A stretch of DNA of 24,000 nucleotides from Nanobdellota archaeon. GTDB taxonomy: Archaea; Nanobdellota; Nanobdellia; Woesearchaeales; UBA9642. Location: positions 67,494 through 91,493 of the forward strand of contig JAKAKR010000013.1 of the NCBI GenBank assembly GCA_021813435.1. Reading direction: 5' to 3'. Of the stretch, positions 7,870 through 23,434 are shown one piece after another (position 1 is the stretch's first letter; every line of letters begins with the position of its first letter). The notes beneath the pieces are model-generated. The model had not been told where the DNA came from. It ran no database searches and saw only the letters and a list, made by a program, of their open reading frames with translations. A program made the translations under genes and the position numbers.

Positions 7870-7996
7870 GCCGGGGTGGCACAACCTGGTACTGCGCCAG
7901 ATTGCTAAGCACTATGCGTGCTTTTAGATTGCTGCGCATTACACACAAAGATCTGGTGTCCGAAAGGATTTGTGGGTTCAAATCCCACCCTCGGCG
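7870..7996 (+). tRNA. tRNA-Ser (anticodon GCU) with an intron of about 43 nt at the canonical 37/38 position
   Basis: Folded by hand. Acceptor GCCGGGG/CCTCGGC (one G-U), discriminator G. Anticodon stem CCAGA/TCTGG, loop TTGCTA[intron]A with GCT at 7904-7906. Long class-II variable arm TGTCCGAAAGGATTT. T arm GTGGG-TTCAAAT-CCCAC. Confidence 0.85.
7908..7950 (+). other. tRNA-Ser intron (boundaries +/-1-2 nt)
   Basis: The insertion AGCACTATGCGTGCTTTTAGATTGCTGCGCATTACACACAAAG sits between anticodon-loop position 37 and A38. It contains the hairpin AAGCAC-TATGC-GTGCTT. Confidence 0.7.
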
Positions 7997-10330: not shown

Positions 10331-10351
10331 CTGATTGCTCCTTACCGCCAT

Positions 10352-10447
10352 AGCGGGGTAGAGCAGTCAGGAGTGCTCGCAGGGCTCATAACCCTGAGGT
10401 CGCTAGAGGTAAGAAATTACCGGCGAATTCAAATCTAGCCCCCGCTA
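10352..10447 (+). tRNA. Initiator tRNA-Met (CAU) with a 21-nt non-canonical intron in the T arm
   Basis: Acceptor AGCGGGG/CCCCGCT with A1:U72, discriminator A. D arm GAGC-AGTCAGGAGT-GCTC. Anticodon stem CAGGG/CCCTG, with the three G:C pairs typical of initiators, and loop CTCATAA. Variable loop AGGTC. T stem GCTAG ... CTAGC with T loop TTCAAAT. A 21-nt insert separates T-stem position 53 from T54. Confidence 0.85.
10407..10427 (+). other. Non-canonical tRNA intron (about position 53/54; boundaries ambiguous by 1-2 nt)
   Basis: AGGTAAGAAATTACCGGCGAA contains the hairpin GGTAA-GAAA-TTACC. Removing it restores a 75-nt cloverleaf. Confidence 0.7.
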
Positions 10448-10462
10448 TTTTTTCTATTTTTT
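10448..10462 (+). terminator. Double oligo-T terminator after tRNA-iMet
   Basis: ttttttctatttttt follows directly after the discriminator base. Confidence 0.6.
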
Positions 10463-10493: not shown

Positions 10494-11279
10494 ATGAAAC
10501 AAATCACTCTGCTCACTGGACATTTAGGCGAAAGGCATATCTATAGATGCTGTCTTCTTAAGACAATGCAACGGGATGTATCTGAAAATGATAGAATAAG
10601 AGGTATAAAACTTCCTAAAGAAATTTCTAAAGACTTAGCATATCTCTGCGGGATATTTGCTGGAGATGGAAGCCTTGGATATCGACGAAAAAAGAATGAA
10701 TATTGCCTTAAAGTTGTGGGAAATCCTAAAGACGAGAAAGAATTTTATCATCAAGTTATTGGACCGAAATTCGAGAAAGTGTTCGGAATACTTCCGAGAA
10801 TGAAATACCATGATTCAAAAACAACTTATGGATTTAGTATCTACTCGAAATCTATATATCTATATTTAGTAAATGTTACTGGCTTGCCTTCAGGAGTCAA
10901 ATACCATTCTCTAAAAGTCCCAGATATATTTCTTGATGATAAAAAATTAACAATGGCATTTATTAGAGGAGTATTTGACACAGACGGATGTATATCTTTC
11001 AAGAAAAGGTATCGGACTGAACCCTATTATCCAACAATTAGCGTTTGTTCAAAAAGCAGAAAATTTATAGATGAAATCGCGGATATATTAAAAACTACGC
11101 AGTTAATATTCTCTGGACCATATACATATATGCAAAAAGATATGCGTATTACGCAAGGACATACTACAACGAGCCGCATCTATATTTACGGTCACAAAAA
11201 TCTTCAGATATGGATAGATACAATTGATTTTTATAGTCCTAAACATTTGGCAAAAATACAGAAATACGCAAAATTGTAA
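10494..11279 (+). CDS. Free-standing double-motif LAGLIDADG homing-endonuclease-family protein
   Basis: Two LAGLIDADG motifs: LAYLCGIFAGDGSLG and MAFIRGVFDTDGCISF. The gene is AT-rich compared with its neighbours. The start is uncertain: ATG 10494, or ATG 10566 (MQRDVSEN), which has atctatag about 20-28 nt upstream. Confidence 0.8.
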   Translation: MKQITLLTGHLGERHIYRCCLLKTMQRDVSENDRIRGIKLPKEISKDLAYLCGIFAGDGSLGYRRKKNEYCLKVVGNPKDEKEFYHQVIGPKFEKVFGILPRMKYHDSKTTYGFSIYSKSIYLYLVNVTGLPSGVKYHSLKVPDIFLDDKKLTMAFIRGVFDTDGCISFKKRYRTEPYYPTISVCSKSRKFIDEIADILKTTQLIFSGPYTYMQKDMRITQGHTTTSRIYIYGHKNLQIWIDTIDFYSPKHLAKIQKYAKL

Positions 11280-12633: not shown

Positions 12634-13599
12634 ATGCGTAAACTTGCAAAATTTTCATCCAAAGTATTTCTTGCGCCCATGGCAGGCATCACTGACCCTG
12701 CATTCCGATTGCTCTGCAAAGAGGAAGGTGCGGGGCTTGTTACGACTGAACTTACCAGCATCCACGCCATTGTTGCAAAGGAAAAGCAGTTATCACAGGA
12801 AAACAAGGCAATCACGCAATTTGTCGAATATTCTGAAAAGGAGCGTCCTATCGCAATCCAACTGTTTGGCAATGATATTGATCTTGCAGTCCGCGCCGCA
12901 AAGATTGTTGAACCCTATTTTGACATTATTGATTTTAATATGGGCTGTCCTGCGCCGCATATCACCCAGCAGGAAGCAGGCGCTGCACTTTTGCAGAAAC
13001 CTGTACATGTAAAAGAATTATTTGCACGGCTTGTAACATCCATCGATAAACCCGTCACCCTTAAAGTCCGTGCAGGGATAAAGAGCGATAATCCGCATCT
13101 CTACCGCGATATTGCAAAAATTGCAGAGGATTGCGGAATCGCGATGATTACACTACATGCAAGAACGCTTGAGCAGGGATATTCAGGAACTGCAGACTGG
13201 AAACTTATTGCGGATTTGAAATCCCGGGTCACTATCCCGGTTGTCGGCAATGGCGATATCAAGACTCCTGAGGATGCAAAGCGCATGATGGATGAGACAG
13301 GCTGTGATTATGTGATGATTGGACGGGCTGCGATGGGCAACCCGCAAATATTTTTGCAATGCAATGAGTACATTACCTCTGGGAGATATACGCAGATAAC
13401 AGTGCAGGATAAGGTCAAATCATTTTTGCAGTATCTTGCGTATGCAAGAGATTATGCCATAAGCCCTGCAGCAATCAAGGTGCAGGCAATGCAATTCACT
13501 AAAGGCATTCCCGGCGCGCCGGACTTGCGAAGAAAGATTAGCGCATGCAGGAGTGGAGAAGAGTTCAGAGAACTATTTACACATCATGATGATGTATAA
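12634..13599 (+). CDS. tRNA-dihydrouridine synthase (Dus family)
   Basis: LAPMAGITDPAFRLLCKEEGAGLVTTE...IAIQLFGND...IIDFNMGCPAP (catalytic Cys)...ITLHARTLEQGYSGTADW...IPVVGNGDI...VMIGRAAMGNPQIF. Confidence 0.9.
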   Translation: MRKLAKFSSKVFLAPMAGITDPAFRLLCKEEGAGLVTTELTSIHAIVAKEKQLSQENKAITQFVEYSEKERPIAIQLFGNDIDLAVRAAKIVEPYFDIIDFNMGCPAPHITQQEAGAALLQKPVHVKELFARLVTSIDKPVTLKVRAGIKSDNPHLYRDIAKIAEDCGIAMITLHARTLEQGYSGTADWKLIADLKSRVTIPVVGNGDIKTPEDAKRMMDETGCDYVMIGRAAMGNPQIFLQCNEYITSGRYTQITVQDKVKSFLQYLAYARDYAISPAAIKVQAMQFTKGIPGAPDLRRKISACRSGEEFRELFTHHDDV

Positions 13600-15538: not shown

Positions 15539-16060
15539 ATGGGTAAAAAAGAGGCGAACACTGTTTCTGAACCAGTTCCTGCACCAAATGTTCTTGACAG
15601 TAGACCTGCGTATTTCAAAGTCGAGGGTCCAAAACCGCAGATTACCCCGCTCGATAACCGGGAATCAAAATTCGTCAATACTGTCCTTCCTATCCTCAAA
15701 TCAGTCTCGAACGTCATCATTATCCTGCTCATTGTTGCGCTCGTGGTCACAATCGTCTACAAACTTTACGCCCTTTTCTTTGTGGATATGATGAGCGGCA
15801 ATTTCCAGAATGTCATCAATGATCTCCTGCTCACGATCATCCTTATCGAACTCTTCACCATCCTGTATTCATATCTCGTGAAGTATTATATCAAGGTCGA
15901 GCGTGTCATCGAGCTTGGGATCATATCCATCATCCGGGAGATGCTCTTTAAGATCCAGGAATTTGAGGCAAATAAGATCTATGCAGTCGCAGTCCTTCTG
16001 GTCTCATTCGGACTTCTCTTCTTTATTGAGAAATATTATTCCAAGTCAAGGAATGTATAG
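15539..16060 (+). CDS. PsiE-like (phosphate-starvation-inducible E family) membrane protein
   Basis: There are four hydrophobic segments. LLLTIILIELFTILYSY...IKVERVIELGIISIIREML resembles the PsiE family core (ELi..l......i....vl.v.l.AliRk.i). Confidence 0.6.
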   Translation: MGKKEANTVSEPVPAPNVLDSRPAYFKVEGPKPQITPLDNRESKFVNTVLPILKSVSNVIIILLIVALVVTIVYKLYALFFVDMMSGNFQNVINDLLLTIILIELFTILYSYLVKYYIKVERVIELGIISIIREMLFKIQEFEANKIYAVAVLLVSFGLLFFIEKYYSKSRNV

Positions 16061-16066
16061 AATAGT

Positions 16067-17122
16067 TTATTTATATAGTGCATCTATCACGTGTTTATCG
16101 CCCAAATCATAGCATATTGAACGGGTTTCCTTCCTGAAAAACCTTCCTGAATATTCTTTCAATCGTTCTTCTGATGAAATGCCAATATCTGCACATCCGT
16201 AAGTATGCATAAAATCCAGACTCGTACTTCCTGCCGTTAGAATAAATCGCTCATAATTACTATCGTTTTTATCGATACGAACGTTAATTTTTGAATTATC
16301 ATTATCTATTATGAATTTTTTCAAAGCATTTCGAATAGTATCACACTCGATAAATTGGTTATCGACATACCAATGAACATGCTCAGACGTAAGGCTCTCA
16401 GGATAATAATTTTTTTTACCATGAAATTTCCTGTCCTTAATCGTGACAAGAAATTTTGCTTTGTCAATGATGCGGTCAATATTTTTACTTGAAAGGATTA
16501 GTCCTTTTTGCGATGCCTCAAATACCTCAACATAACTTTCAGGACGTACGGACAGATTATCCATGAAATCAGGATGAGAGAATAACTTATTTACTCCTAA
16601 ATCAACATCCTGAGCAGTAAACCCTGAATAGTTCATTAAGTTGTTACGAGTTGAGTCATAGGTCGCATCATACACCATTGAAGAAATTGTTTCAAGATCA
16701 AACGATTCTCGAGGATCTTTTTTTATTGTTGATAATAATAGATACGCCGCACGCATTGTATCAATAAATGAATAGACATTATTACCAATAGCACCAATAT
16801 CAACATAACTATCACTCCATGCAAAAGGAGCAGATAACCTTTTTTGTTCATTAATGACACTTACACCAAAAGTTATAGCAGTTAAATCATCTGTTCGTGC
16901 ATCTCTGACATTAAATTTTATACCCCATTTCGGTATGCACCAGACAGTATATCCTTTTATAGTATCCAGCGAATACAGCGCATTCTGAAAACGATCGGTT
17001 TCTTCAGGCATAATTACAAAATCAGATTTGAGCTTTACTCGCTCGACTGATCCTCGTTTATTTTTTATTTCTACAGGTTTTACTTCATAAGGAACTTTTT
17101 GTAAATCACTGTTTTGTTTCAT
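16067..17122 (-). CDS. Hypothetical protein (351 aa), second gene of an AT-rich ORFan operon
   Basis: Long clean ORF with no family motif I can recognise. Its ATG at 17122 is preceded by GAGGT, which overlaps the upstream gene's TGA with a 6-nt spacer, indicating translational coupling. Confidence 0.7.
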   Translation of the reverse strand: MKQNSDLQKVPYEVKPVEIKNKRGSVERVKLKSDFVIMPEETDRFQNALYSLDTIKGYTVWCIPKWGIKFNVRDARTDDLTAITFGVSVINEQKRLSAPFAWSDSYVDIGAIGNNVYSFIDTMRAAYLLLSTIKKDPRESFDLETISSMVYDATYDSTRNNLMNYSGFTAQDVDLGVNKLFSHPDFMDNLSVRPESYVEVFEASQKGLILSSKNIDRIIDKAKFLVTIKDRKFHGKKNYYPESLTSEHVHWYVDNQFIECDTIRNALKKFIIDNDNSKINVRIDKNDSNYERFILTAGSTSLDFMHTYGCADIGISSEERLKEYSGRFFRKETRSICYDLGDKHVIDALYK

Positions 17123-17131
17123 CAGTTAACC

Positions 17132-17731
17132 TCATACTTGTTTTTCAGTAATTAATGGCATCAGATCGACTACGCTCGGATGACGCCATTCGCGATATGT
17201 TTCATAAAGCGAACGTTTTTCTGCAGGCTGCGGATTGACATCGATGTAAAATCGCATGCCTGTACTACTATTTTCTCCGTGGAGCCTAATTGTTGAGAAC
17301 AGTTGAGATAGTGCAGCATCAGTTTCTACGCGAAACTTTTTTTTATAATCCGCGAAAAGACGGGATAATGAATTCCACTGACACCCGCCAATGCCAGAAT
17401 ATATGCGTTTATCTTTCGAATCCGCATGAACAATAGTGACGGAATATTTCTTAAGGAATTTATCAGATAGTAATGTGTCAACAAGAGTAAAATCCTTGTT
17501 CAGTATTTCAAATTCAGCACAGGGCGCCTGCCCATAAGTGTTGATGTAATCTCCGAGATGAGCAACATATTGATGTGCAGAGATAAGATTGACGTTGTTC
17601 TTCGTCAAGTGACTCCCGATGTCGAGATATTCAAATAATGCGCGAGCACGTTGCCCAAATTGTTCATCTAAATGATAGTCTGACAATTCTTGCACTTGTT
17701 CCATAGTTTTTAACAGAATTGTTTTTTTCAT
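17132..17731 (-). CDS. Hypothetical protein (199 aa), first gene of an AT-rich ORFan operon
   Basis: The ATG at 17731 is preceded by the SD GGTGA at 7 nt (the track ORF begins at GTG 17740). No recognisable family. A loose PD-(D/E)xK-like pattern (FTLVD ... VTIVHADSK) is only a guess. Confidence 0.7.
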   Translation of the reverse strand: MKKTILLKTMEQVQELSDYHLDEQFGQRARALFEYLDIGSHLTKNNVNLISAHQYVAHLGDYINTYGQAPCAEFEILNKDFTLVDTLLSDKFLKKYSVTIVHADSKDKRIYSGIGGCQWNSLSRLFADYKKKFRVETDAALSQLFSTIRLHGENSSTGMRFYIDVNPQPAEKRSLYETYREWRHPSVVDLMPLITEKQV

Positions 17732-17789
17732 AATAATCACCTATTTACTCACTTAATAGTAGTACTGTAATGTTGTATTTAAATATTTG

Positions 17790-17807
17790 CAACCTTTTAT
17801 GAGGTTG
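17790..17807. promoter_or_regulatory. Palindrome CAACCT-N6-AGGTTG in the divergent ORFan-operon / TrmB intergenic region
   Basis: Perfect 6-bp arms read directly. It lies between the two divergent promoters and is a candidate TrmB operator. Confidence 0.45.
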
Positions 17808-17819
17808 TAAATAACAAAA

Positions 17820-17827
17820 TTTATATA
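17820..17827 (+). promoter_or_regulatory. TATA box for TrmB paralog 1
   Basis: tttatata lies 22-29 nt upstream of the ATG at 17849. Confidence 0.6.
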
Positions 17828-17848
17828 GAACACGATCACTCATAAAGT

Positions 17849-18583
17849 ATGGACCTGCAAGAACTCGGGCTTACAGCAAATGAATCCAAAGTGTATGAAA
17901 CACTTCTCAAATACGGCGCGCTTACCGCAGCAAATTGTGCAAAACAGTCCCAAGTGCCCTACGGCAGGATATATACCGTCCTGGATTCGCTTGAGCGCAA
18001 AGGACTCATCAAAATTCTCCCTGAACAGACTAAAAAATTTGTTCCCAGTGACCCCCAAGAACTCGACGAATTAATCACTAAGAAAAAGGATAGTCTTGAT
18101 GCGCTTAAACAAAAGATCAAAGCATACAAAACACTCTATCATGAGCGAAAACCTGAAGCAATACAGATAAGCTATGATCGGCATAACTTCCACAAACTGG
18201 TAGCTCAGATGAAAAAAGCAGAACATTACTCGTATAGCATCAAATATGCATTCGCAACAGATCCTGCATTCATGCGCGACGTTAAAGAACTCACTGCACA
18301 AAAGGTCGATTACCGCGCACTGGGGCGCATTGACAAAGAAACAGCACCCAGCGTCAAAAAATGGCACACCATAACAACCCATATCAGACATATCCCTAAC
18401 GAAGGGGTCGCAGTATCAATAATCGATGATGAAGAAATGCTCATCTCATGCATCACGACAAACACGATGATGCTTATCAAGGATAAACCGCTTATCAAAC
18501 TCATGAAAGAATTGTTCCTGCGCTATTATGAGACGCAACCAGAAATAACGCAGGACACCACTATGCACAAAAAACGACCATAA
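17849..18583 (+). CDS. TrmB-family transcriptional regulator (paralog 1)
   Basis: The N-terminal wHTH is LQELGLTANESKVYETLLKYGALTAANCAKQSQVPYGRIYTVLDSLERKGLI...PSDPQEL, followed by a coiled-coil linker and a C-terminal effector-like domain. Confidence 0.85.
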   Translation: MDLQELGLTANESKVYETLLKYGALTAANCAKQSQVPYGRIYTVLDSLERKGLIKILPEQTKKFVPSDPQELDELITKKKDSLDALKQKIKAYKTLYHERKPEAIQISYDRHNFHKLVAQMKKAEHYSYSIKYAFATDPAFMRDVKELTAQKVDYRALGRIDKETAPSVKKWHTITTHIRHIPNEGVAVSIIDDEEMLISCITTNTMMLIKDKPLIKLMKELFLRYYETQPEITQDTTMHKKRP

Positions 18584-22238: not shown

Positions 22239-22577
22239 TCATATCGTTTTATCATTGGGTTCATCGAATGCTGAAAATAATTCCTTCTCATTCTTGTATT
22301 TTTCTATAGAATAATGTTTAGTTTCTAATAATTCAATAAATCTCAAATAGAAATATCTCCCATTCTCATACGGTTGTATGGGATGACGCTTTTTTAAGAT
22401 TTTTTCAAAACGTAATTTTATTGTATCTGCGTCTTCTCTTGTTAAATTCTTTGCAACAATATTTGACTCTGAATACTCATACCGGTTACATTCTGAATGG
22501 CTATAAATACATTCTTTTATGGCGTACTTGACTTTTGTATCTAGATCCTCTCTCCTTTTTGATTTAGTTGGTTTCAT
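22239..22577 (-). CDS. Hypothetical small basic protein (about 112 aa), AT-rich ORFan
   Basis: The ORF MKPTKSKRREDLDTKVKYAIKECIYSHSECNRYEY...ENGRYFYLRFIELLETKHYSIEKYK has no recognisable family. Start is ATG 22577 or GTG 22589. TATA-like tattatag lies about 22-28 nt upstream. Confidence 0.5.
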   Translation of the reverse strand: MKPTKSKRREDLDTKVKYAIKECIYSHSECNRYEYSESNIVAKNLTREDADTIKLRFEKILKKRHPIQPYENGRYFYLRFIELLETKHYSIEKYKNEKELFSAFDEPNDKTI

Positions 22578-22641: not shown

Positions 22642-22659
22642 TGTCGAAAACCTTCGACA
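22642..22659. promoter_or_regulatory. Palindrome TGTCGAA-N4-TTCGACA in the divergent ORFan / TrmB intergenic region
   Basis: Perfect 7-bp arms read directly. It lies between the divergent promoters and is a candidate operator. Confidence 0.5.
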
Positions 22660-22699: not shown

Positions 22700-23434
22700 A
22701 TGCAGTACGAAGAAGAACTCCGCAAGTATGGCCTCTCAGAAAAAGAGGCAAAAGTATATTTAGCACTCCTCAAAAAAGGGCCATCAACAGTGAACGAAAT
22801 TGCAGAATCAGCAGATCTTGTAAGAACCACGACATACGACATCCTCAAGATACTGCGTGAAGAAGGAATTGTGGCATCAATGACCAAAAATAATATTCGA
22901 TATTTTGAAGCATCGGATCCTGAAAAATTACTCCAGATTCTCGACGAACAAAAAAAACATGTTGAGGAGATTCTCCCAAAATTGCGACAACTCAAAAAAG
23001 AAGATTCTCCGAAATCACGCGCAGAGATATTTGAAGGAAAGCATGGAGTTAAAACAGTGTTTCAAGCATTGCTCGACAACAAGGAGCCGCTCTATGCATA
23101 TACAAACAATAAATTCATGGTTGATCTCCTTCCGAGTTATGCGCCGCGGTTTATTCAGGAACGGGTCAAACAGCGTATACCAATCAAGATTATTAGTGAA
23201 CCATCACAGACCACAACAACATTACTCAAGAATAAAGATAGTAAAGAATTTCGCGAAACAAGAACATTAAAAGAATTTAAAAAAATACCAATTAATGAGT
23301 ATATTTCAGGCGATATGGTCACTATCCTTGGATCACGCACCGACGAACCTATCGGCATCATTATCTACAATAAAGATTTTGCTGGCGAACAGCGCATCCT
23401 ATTCGAGAAACTTTGGTCTATTGCAGAGAAATAA
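22700..23434 (+). CDS. TrmB-family transcriptional regulator (paralog 2)
   Basis: LRKYGLSEKEAKVYLALLKKGPSTVNEIAESADLVRTTTYDILKILREEGIV...ASDPEKL is the TrmB wHTH, followed by a C-terminal domain. It is the same length (244 aa) as paralog 1. Confidence 0.85.
   Translation: MQYEEELRKYGLSEKEAKVYLALLKKGPSTVNEIAESADLVRTTTYDILKILREEGIVASMTKNNIRYFEASDPEKLLQILDEQKKHVEEILPKLRQLKKEDSPKSRAEIFEGKHGVKTVFQALLDNKEPLYAYTNNKFMVDLLPSYAPRFIQERVKQRIPIKIISEPSQTTTTLLKNKDSKEFRETRTLKEFKKIPINEYISGDMVTILGSRTDEPIGIIIYNKDFAGEQRILFEKLWSIAEK

Follow-up and report, generated by a model that had tools for sequence, protein, structure and literature searches.

Two adjacent genes of a Nanobdellota archaeon (order Woesearchaeales), here called A199 and B351 after the lengths of their products, lie divergent from a gene for a TrmB-family regulator in a 24,000-nucleotide stretch of contig JAKAKR010000013.1, to which we refer as the window. 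The most informative finding of our analysis is that the TrmB-associated control region, i.e., operator, promoter, leader and Shine-Dalgarno (SD) sequence, is a conserved "socket" whose cargo changes from genome to genome. With moderate confidence, we interpret A199-B351 as an accessory two-gene operon that occupies a replaceable-cargo position behind a conserved divergent promoter controlled by the TrmB-family regulator. A large share of the genes of DPANN archaea have no known function, and this locus is a concrete case in which the regulator, its operator, the promoter, the leader and the ribosome-binding site are conserved across related species and the genes that they drive are exchanged.

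Conserved control region and exchanged cargo

The comparison was made with the loci of the closest sequenced relative (L006, JBBAAQ010000010) and of two further genomes, L008 and L009; two more loci, L007 and L010, contain neither this TrmB gene nor the PsiE gene that accompanies it in the window. Three cargo variants were found. In the window A199 is followed by B351. In L006 a homologue of A199 is the first gene behind the same promoter and is followed by the gene of an unrelated 233-aa protein (N233), and in L008 the first gene behind the promoter encodes a 241-aa relative of N233 (N241; pairwise E 9e-5), followed by an open reading frame (ORF) of 126 codons and then by the gene of a FecR-domain membrane protein. 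The junctions within the slot are similarly tight in the relatives (4 nt in L006, 2 nt in L008). In L009 both TrmB and PsiE are present and the divergent cargo is absent. The original prediction treated A199 and B351 as one module and named homologues that are never adjacent elsewhere as evidence to the contrary, and this is in part what was found: the pair is not, on sequence comparison, conserved as a unit, because the only homologue of A199 is coupled to another gene and B351 has no homologue. The accessory status that was proposed for the pair fared better, since at the same junction of related genomes the pair is either missing or different. It was also checked whether the slot proteins are related to each other, and comparison of A199, B351, the 233/241-aa protein and the 126-aa protein of L008 rejected any mutual kinship; in particular, B351 is not a diverged or frameshifted copy of the 233/241-aa protein, to which it has no similarity in any frame.

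The intergenic region between A199 and the TrmB gene (17732-17848) is 117 bp long and contains the perfect palindrome CAACCT-N6-AGGTTG, as had been noted previously. The palindrome (17790-17807) occurs once within the window and, in its general form CAACC-N8-GGTTG, is the putative binding site of the TrmB protein. On the minus strand, the TATA box of the A199-B351 promoter, TTTAAATA (17776-17783), is located 52 nt upstream of the A199 start codon, as expected for a leadered mRNA, and the leader/initiator region TACTACTATTAAGT (17751-17764), which would lie about 25 nt downstream of this TATA box, is identical in L006 at 14 of 14 positions and recognisable in L008. This similarity persists although the coding sequences behind it differ. 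The SD sequence AGGTGAT (17736-17742, minus strand) represents the full match to the anti-SD and is located 4 nt upstream of the ATG at 17731; an SD was correctly predicted, but its GGTGA part is separated from the ATG by 5 nt and not by 7. The same geometry, GGAGGTGAT plus 4 nt, is present in L006, which supports ATG 17731, rather than GTG 17740, as the start of A199. On the plus strand, the TATA box of the TrmB promoter, TTTATATA (17820-17827), is located 29 nt upstream of the TrmB ATG, i.e., at the distance of a leaderless mRNA, and repeat analysis showed that the same TATA element also precedes the SMC gene. The suggestion that the backbone genes are mostly leaderless holds for PsiE, both TrmB genes of the window and two other genes, each with its TATA box at -29 to -31 relative to the ATG, but several other genes carry an SD sequence.

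When the intergenic regions of the window, L006 and L008 are aligned and the sequence of L009 is added, the order of elements is the same: the TrmB ATG, a TATA box, a spacer of 12-14 nt, the operator, CAAA, the second TATA box, the leader, the SD and the ATG. As a DNA pattern, this region can be written as CAACC-N8-GGTTGCAAA-N(5-12)-TTTA[AT]ATA-N(8-16)-TACTACTATTAAGT, where the second TATA box is TTTAAATA, TTTATATA or ATATAAATA depending on the genome. The operator half-sites are invariant and the spacer between them is variable in L006 and L009, and there is one mismatch in L008. The operator and the TrmB promoter are retained in L009, where no divergent gene follows. The control-region DNA of the window and L006 is 69% similar over 186 bp, and the coding DNA of the A genes is not detectably similar. 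The palindrome by itself is unremarkable, as 39 of 100 shuffled sequences hold such a site with up to two mismatches; its significance comes from its conservation in relatives and not from chance rarity.

The regulator gene (17849-18583, plus strand), which is located directly upstream of SMC in both the window and L006, encodes a 244-aa protein with a match to PF01978 (E 4.8e-20; 71.6 bits against a gathering cut-off of 25.6), and family-library searches gave no match to the TrmB sugar-binding domain. Its orthologues are 59% (L006), 48% (L008) and 38% (L009) identical to it. The recognition sites of TrmB-family regulators are palindromic, the usual ligands of these proteins are sugars or other small molecules, and they control nearby operons (PMC4158304); sites located upstream of the element recognised by TFB (BRE) and of the TATA box lead to activation and sites located downstream of the TATA box lead to repression (PMC4706686, PMC4158304). 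In the window the palindrome is located upstream of each of the two TATA boxes, 6 nt from that of the cargo promoter, where it overlaps the expected BRE, and 12 nt from that of the TrmB promoter. It is a reasonable inference that the regulator would control the cargo promoter sterically, via transcription factor B (TFB), and would also regulate its own gene; the sign of the regulation is not readable from sequence. According to the proposed mechanism, a TrmB dimer would bind the palindrome and control both its own transcription and that of the cargo operon in response to a ligand. The operon mRNA would carry a leader of about 20-30 nt, A199 would be translated from its strong SD and B351 through coupling to A199, and the two products would act together as soluble cytoplasmic proteins.

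The idea that the regulator is dedicated to the two genes was not upheld. Judging from the compared loci, TrmB is a backbone gene, because L009 has kept it together with its operator in the absence of cargo and because it is located directly upstream of SMC in the window and in L006. A second TrmB paralogue of the window (22700-23434) is 93% identical to its L006 counterpart and 27% identical to the first TrmB in the helix-turn-helix (HTH) region. It has the same layout, with the perfect palindrome TGTCGAA-N4-TTCGACA (approximately 22642-22659) and a divergent low-GC gene for a 112-aa protein of no known family (22239-22577). Since the second paralogue has the same design and a different palindrome, each palindrome is read as the operator of its own TrmB.

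Several further observations were made on the control region and its counterparts. In L009 (8901-9032), where both the operator CAACC-N8-GGTTG and the TATA box of TrmB are intact, RNase HII ends about 60 bp past the operator and TrmB is followed by PsiE; the divergent promoter may have left a remnant here after cargo loss, as suggested by an AT-rich stretch with the leader-like sequence CTAGAACTATTAGAAT. In L008 a GC-rich insert of about 200 bp (13390-13590) separates the TrmB TATA box from the TrmB start in a genome of 30% GC. Its ends form an inverted repeat of about 13 bp (ACCGTCTTTAGCG / CGCTAAAGAGGT); it folds better than shuffled sequences (z -2.8), has no Rfam or tRNA match, and may be an element similar to miniature inverted-repeat transposable elements or a structured leader. 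An 18-nt complementarity between the leader of the window (17755-17772) and the A199 coding sequence (17255-17272) is absent in L006 and was dismissed as a chance match. A scan for sigma-70 promoters and intrinsic terminators returned background-level signals and is uninformative for an archaeon.

The gene pair, its surroundings and its history

A199 and B351 were predicted as two intact ORFs divergent from TrmB, and our analysis agrees with this. A199 (17132-17731 from the ATG, minus strand) is the first gene of the operon and encodes a 199-aa soluble protein of a family with two known members. B351 (16067-17122, minus strand) is the second gene and encodes a 351-aa soluble protein with an isoelectric point (pI) of 6.3, an ORFan at the species level. 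Both proteins have a near-neutral pI and no hydrophobic segments. At the junction of the two genes (17123-17134, minus strand) the A199 stop codon TGA (17134-17132) overlaps the SD GAGGT (17133-17129), which is followed by a 6-nt spacer and the B351 ATG; the pair appears to be translationally coupled, as was originally proposed. The tight downstream boundary was likewise confirmed: the PsiE stop TAG ends at 16060 and the 6-nt spacer AATAGT separates it from the B351 stop TAA at 16067-16069, so that B351 has its neighbours at 6 nt and 9 nt. To the extent that this is visible from sequence, A199 and B351 are real genes, because the ORF length goes beyond that of shuffled sequences (when the region was shuffled 2000 times, the longest ORF had a mean of 82 codons and a maximum of 191, against the 351 codons of B351), because in both genes the G+C content decreases from the first to the third codon position (GC1 > GC2 > GC3), and because A199 has a full-length homologue. 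B351 was found on 14 contigs in ENA, NCBI and Logan assemblies (e.g., GCA_027374595.1) that come from several samples, with constant neighbours and an identical gene sequence.

No family could be recognised for either protein when the original prediction was made, and much wider searches led to the same result. B351 retrieved only itself among 5.8 billion protein clusters in a word-indexed search and in a full phmmer pass over 1.84 billion representatives, and it had no match in the PDB, viral contigs, phages or plasmids. The single A199 sequence also retrieved only itself among the 5.8 billion clusters. Synteny-guided tblastn located its one homologue, P0003, at the syntenic position in L006; the two proteins are 36% identical along their full length. 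A profile made of these two sequences found nothing beyond both members in the protein collection, JGI metagenomes, viral contigs, the PDB and 85 fetched loci, with no PDB match at E <= 10, and tblastn against phages and plasmids together with scans of metagenome and viral contigs added no relatives of either protein. Neither A199 (at E <= 1) nor B351 matches a Pfam, NCBIfam, PADLOC or PHROG family other than at noise level: the best PADLOC match of A199 is Cmr5 (E 0.042, 11.9 bits), which is noise, and B351 has none. Single-sequence AlphaFold2 models were unusable (predicted local distance difference test, pLDDT, of 33 for B351 and 36 for A199), and Foldseek found nothing below E 0.1 with them. 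The two A sequences share a glycine-rich [ST]GIGGC.W.SLS.LF.DYK.K block, the motif YIDVNP and a number of residues of acidic or basic character.

The genes of the neighbourhood are arranged in the order dus, an Mpv17-like gene, a gene for a 147-aa protein, RNase HII, PsiE, B351, A199, TrmB and SMC. The relatives of the RNase HII are found in Woesearchaeota/Nanoarchaeota metagenome-assembled genomes, the nearest being L006. Between the window and L006, A199 is 36% identical, PsiE 53%, TrmB 59%, RNase HII 82% and SMC 83%. RNase HII and, behind it on the same strand, SMC form a deeply conserved pair that is present in 38 of the fetched Woesearchaeota/Nanoarchaeota loci (among L006-L085); the gap between the two measures 24 bp to 6.7 kb, and PsiE and this TrmB are found inside the gap only in the clade of the window (L006, L008, L009). 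In 21 other Woesearchaeota the gap contains genes for pyruvate phosphate dikinase (PPDK), a ZIP transporter, a peptidyl-prolyl isomerase (PPIase), a C39 peptidase, NUDIX and GNAT proteins and similar housekeeping or miscellaneous functions. The RNase HII-SMC junction is a general, recurrent point of insertion or rearrangement and not a defence island.

The low G+C content of the region was recognised from hand counts that proved exact (12/60 at 16261-16320 and 29/60 at 13141-13200). B351 has a GC of 0.34 (GC1/2/3 of 0.44/0.33/0.25), which places it among the lowest 2% of 1056-nt windows for G+C, and no other gene of the neighbourhood has a lower GC3; A199 has a GC3 of 0.34, compared to 0.52-0.56 for the core genes of the window. 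Atypical composition is thus real, but it is not unique to the pair: other low-GC3 genes of the window are kept in the sister genome, namely a LAGLIDADG gene (10494-11279; GC3 0.26, 75% identity) and the 112-aa gene next to the second TrmB (78%). Low GC alone is no proof of recent arrival, because these equally AT-rich genes are 75-78% identical in L006. The overall GC is 43% in the window, 37% in L006 and 30% in L008, with a core GC3 of 0.36-0.39 in L006 and 0.15-0.25 in L008, and the composition of B351 resembles that of genes of a 30% GC Woesearchaeote, that of A199 a 37% GC genome. Genes of low GC in the window may have been exchanged with, or may be lagging behind, lower-GC relatives. Gene flux is frequent in this genome, since several further genes of the window have no counterpart in L006. 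In the simplest history, as we infer it from composition and comparison of the loci, the A gene would be an older, fast-evolving occupant of the slot and B351 a recent arrival at the second position, acquired from a lower-GC donor, e.g., another Woesearchaeote or its mobile elements, where it would have taken the place held in L006 by N233.

Around the pair there are no convincing flanking direct or inverted repeats and no integrase, and the tRNA genes of the window are distant from it (7870-7996 and 10351-10448). The former is a 127-nt Rfam match, probably an intron-containing tRNA, that was not called by ARAGORN; the latter is a 98-nt tRNA-Met called by ARAGORN immediately upstream of the LAGLIDADG-type ORF. 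Between the window and five other assemblies of this organism, 17.9 kb contain four substitutions and no others, all of them in a 15-bp segment of A199 (17291-17305): CAA to GAC, TTC to GTC and ACA to ACG, which change Q to D and F to V and leave one change synonymous; the D variant is that of the L006 homologue. This cluster could be a micro-recombination tract, a trace of local positive selection or an assembly artefact, and no donor copy was found for it. One further locus, L087, is identical to L006, hence no dN/dS could be obtained from strains of the L006 species.

Possible functions and competing explanations

The original prediction pointed to an unannotated defence, toxin or other accessory system. 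For the defence or toxin part we found no support, as there is neither a PADLOC match nor a defence island, although such a role is thereby neither shown nor excluded. Across the window, PADLOC returned generic domain matches only (a methyltransferase to mad2, SMC to LmuB/JetC and an HTH protein to CasR), and no bona fide defence system was found in it. A pair of toxin and immunity proteins, or of sensor and effector, that was acquired horizontally and is restrained by TrmB appears doubtful to us, even though a number of features fit it. The translational coupling of A199 and B351 is tight, the divergence of A199 is extreme relative to that of its neighbours, the GC3 of the pair is low, and the sole four substitutions in 17.9 kb, with two changed residues, are clustered in 15 bp of A199. 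The partners are swapped in relatives, where N233 and N241 contain the motif G-[ST]...HDIDI[IL]V, reminiscent of Pol-beta nucleotidyltransferases. The Pol-beta nucleotidyltransferase fold is common in archaeal toxin-antitoxin (TA) and defence modules. The nucleotidyltransferase reading is, however, a motif-level lead with no Pfam, NCBIfam or PDB support, and B351 lacks the hG[GS]-x(9-13)-DhD Pol-beta motif on inspection of its sequence and has no Pfam match. No slot protein of L006 or L008 matches a family library, nor do they match PADLOC at E <= 10. Family-library searches also revealed no toxin or antitoxin domain (PIN, HEPN, RelE, MNT, ribbon-helix-helix or HTH antitoxin) in A199 or B351, and the HEPN Rx4-6H motif is not conserved between the two members of the A family. 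No defence genes are located nearby, the RNase HII-SMC junction of other Woesearchaeota holds the miscellaneous genes listed above, relatives in phages, plasmids or viral contigs are missing, and known TA families are widespread whereas A199 and B351 are essentially without relatives. As for the PD-(D/E)xK-like pattern that had been pointed out in A199, FTLVD...VHADSK is indeed present and D85 is kept, but D104 is replaced by E and K106 by R in the homologue and no profile supports the assignment; in the alignment, which consists of two sequences only, D85 and K108 are invariant.

Another possibility is a niche-specific accessory enzyme pair that modifies or processes a small molecule under a ligand-sensing TrmB, with no genetic conflict involved. 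The nucleotidyltransferase-like gene of the relatives offers a likeness for such a pair, small molecules are what TrmB-family regulators typically sense when they control nearby operons (PMC4158304), and the conserved acidic, basic and Cys residues of A199 with its glycine-rich loop [ST]GIGGC.W give it an enzyme-like appearance. Both proteins are soluble with a near-neutral pI, and every population sampled carries the operon in fixed, identical form, which also suits this explanation. We nevertheless regard it as unlikely: this TrmB is short (244 aa) and has no sugar-binding domain match, neither A199 nor B351 matches an enzyme family, and metabolic genes are seldom so isolated in sequence space. 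Still less probable is the scenario where B351 is a functionless passenger, i.e., a young gene, or what a mobile element or virus has recently left behind, that is read through from the A199 promoter, so that only A199 is under selection. The missing homologues of B351, its GC3, the very low confidence of its AlphaFold model and the lack of variation that would reveal constraint are all compatible with it. On the other hand, an intact ORF of 351 codons in DNA of 34% GC is very unlikely to exist without selection when shuffled sequences do not exceed 191, and B351 has its own SD at the coupling distance, shows the GC1 > GC2 > GC3 order of genuine genes of low-GC relatives, bears no flanking repeats, integrase or tRNA-adjacent scars and is packed between its neighbours.

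As to the functional class of the accessory operon, our best guess from its architecture, a tentative one, is a conflict- or addiction-type module in which A199 is the conserved partner and the other gene a swappable effector. The features in its favour are that the coupling is tight in all three cargo variants, the partners are swapped, the A gene diverges rapidly and the four substitutions are clustered. The more specific notion that A199 and its exchangeable effector represent a previously unrecognised, Woesearchaeota-specific conflict module, placed in a TrmB-controlled "expression socket" that accepts new cargo, is quite improbable. If the locus is a conflict or host-interaction module, its two proteins would define new families; otherwise they are accessory ORFans of the typical kind.

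A number of points weigh against the accessory-operon interpretation itself. The replaceable nature of the cargo rests on three cargo variants, and the control region is present in four genomes only. The direction of replacement, B351 for the 233-aa gene or the reverse, is deduced from GC3 and phylogenetic proximity alone and may be otherwise. B351 could be functionless: it is invariant on all 14 contigs and has no substitution in the aligned assemblies, which makes purifying selection untestable. Neither profiles nor structures nor an island context support the conflict-type guess, and TrmB binding, expression of the operon and interaction of the A and B proteins are predictions. The locus should not be listed as a defence candidate; beyond the operator it teaches little, and its rank for follow-up is low to moderate. 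The conserved operator, in turn, makes the TrmB-type regulation of an uncultivated lineage accessible to testing.

Comparison with known systems

The TrmB-regulated promoters of Pyrococcus and Thermococcus, i.e., TrmB at the trehalose/maltose (TM) operon (TACT-N3-AGTA) and TrmBL1/Tgr at the Thermococcales glycolytic motif (TGM; TATCAC-N5-GTGATA), are the comparison systems for the control region. The locus in the window shares with them the N-terminal winged-helix TrmB domain (PF01978), a palindrome of half-site, spacer and half-site beside the BRE/TATA, and a regulator gene that adjoins its target; autoregulation is plausible here as well. It differs from them in that the 244-aa protein has no detectable sugar-binding domain, in that CAACC-N8-GGTTG is unrelated to the TGM or TM sites, in that the targets are proteins without a family and not sugar transporters or glycolytic enzymes, and in that the site is located between two divergent TATA boxes.

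With archaeal type II TA and HEPN-MNT modules the locus has in common two tightly coupled cytoplasmic genes of small to medium size, a patchy distribution, partner swapping and, in relatives, a protein with a nucleotidyltransferase-like motif at the equivalent position. Unlike in these modules, there is no profile match and no conserved HEPN Rx4-6H motif in the A family, the proteins are larger, regulation is apparently exerted by the separate TrmB gene and not by an antitoxin, and the families are essentially singletons. The resemblance of A199 to PD-(D/E)xK nucleases consists of D85, an interval of 18 residues and D104-S-K106 after a predicted beta-strand, a spacing that is compatible with these enzymes; the only homologue of A199, however, has E-S-R instead, and no nuclease profile of Pfam, the PDB or PADLOC matches.

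The pair is also similar to lineage-specific ORFans of variable slots, as its GC is low relative to the core, B351 is found in one species and A199 in two sister lineages, and the junction where it is inserted, that of RNase HII and SMC, measures between 24 bp and 6.7 kb across the phylum. What distinguishes the locus from the usual ORFan islands is that the promoter, the operator, the leader and the SD are conserved while the cargo changes.

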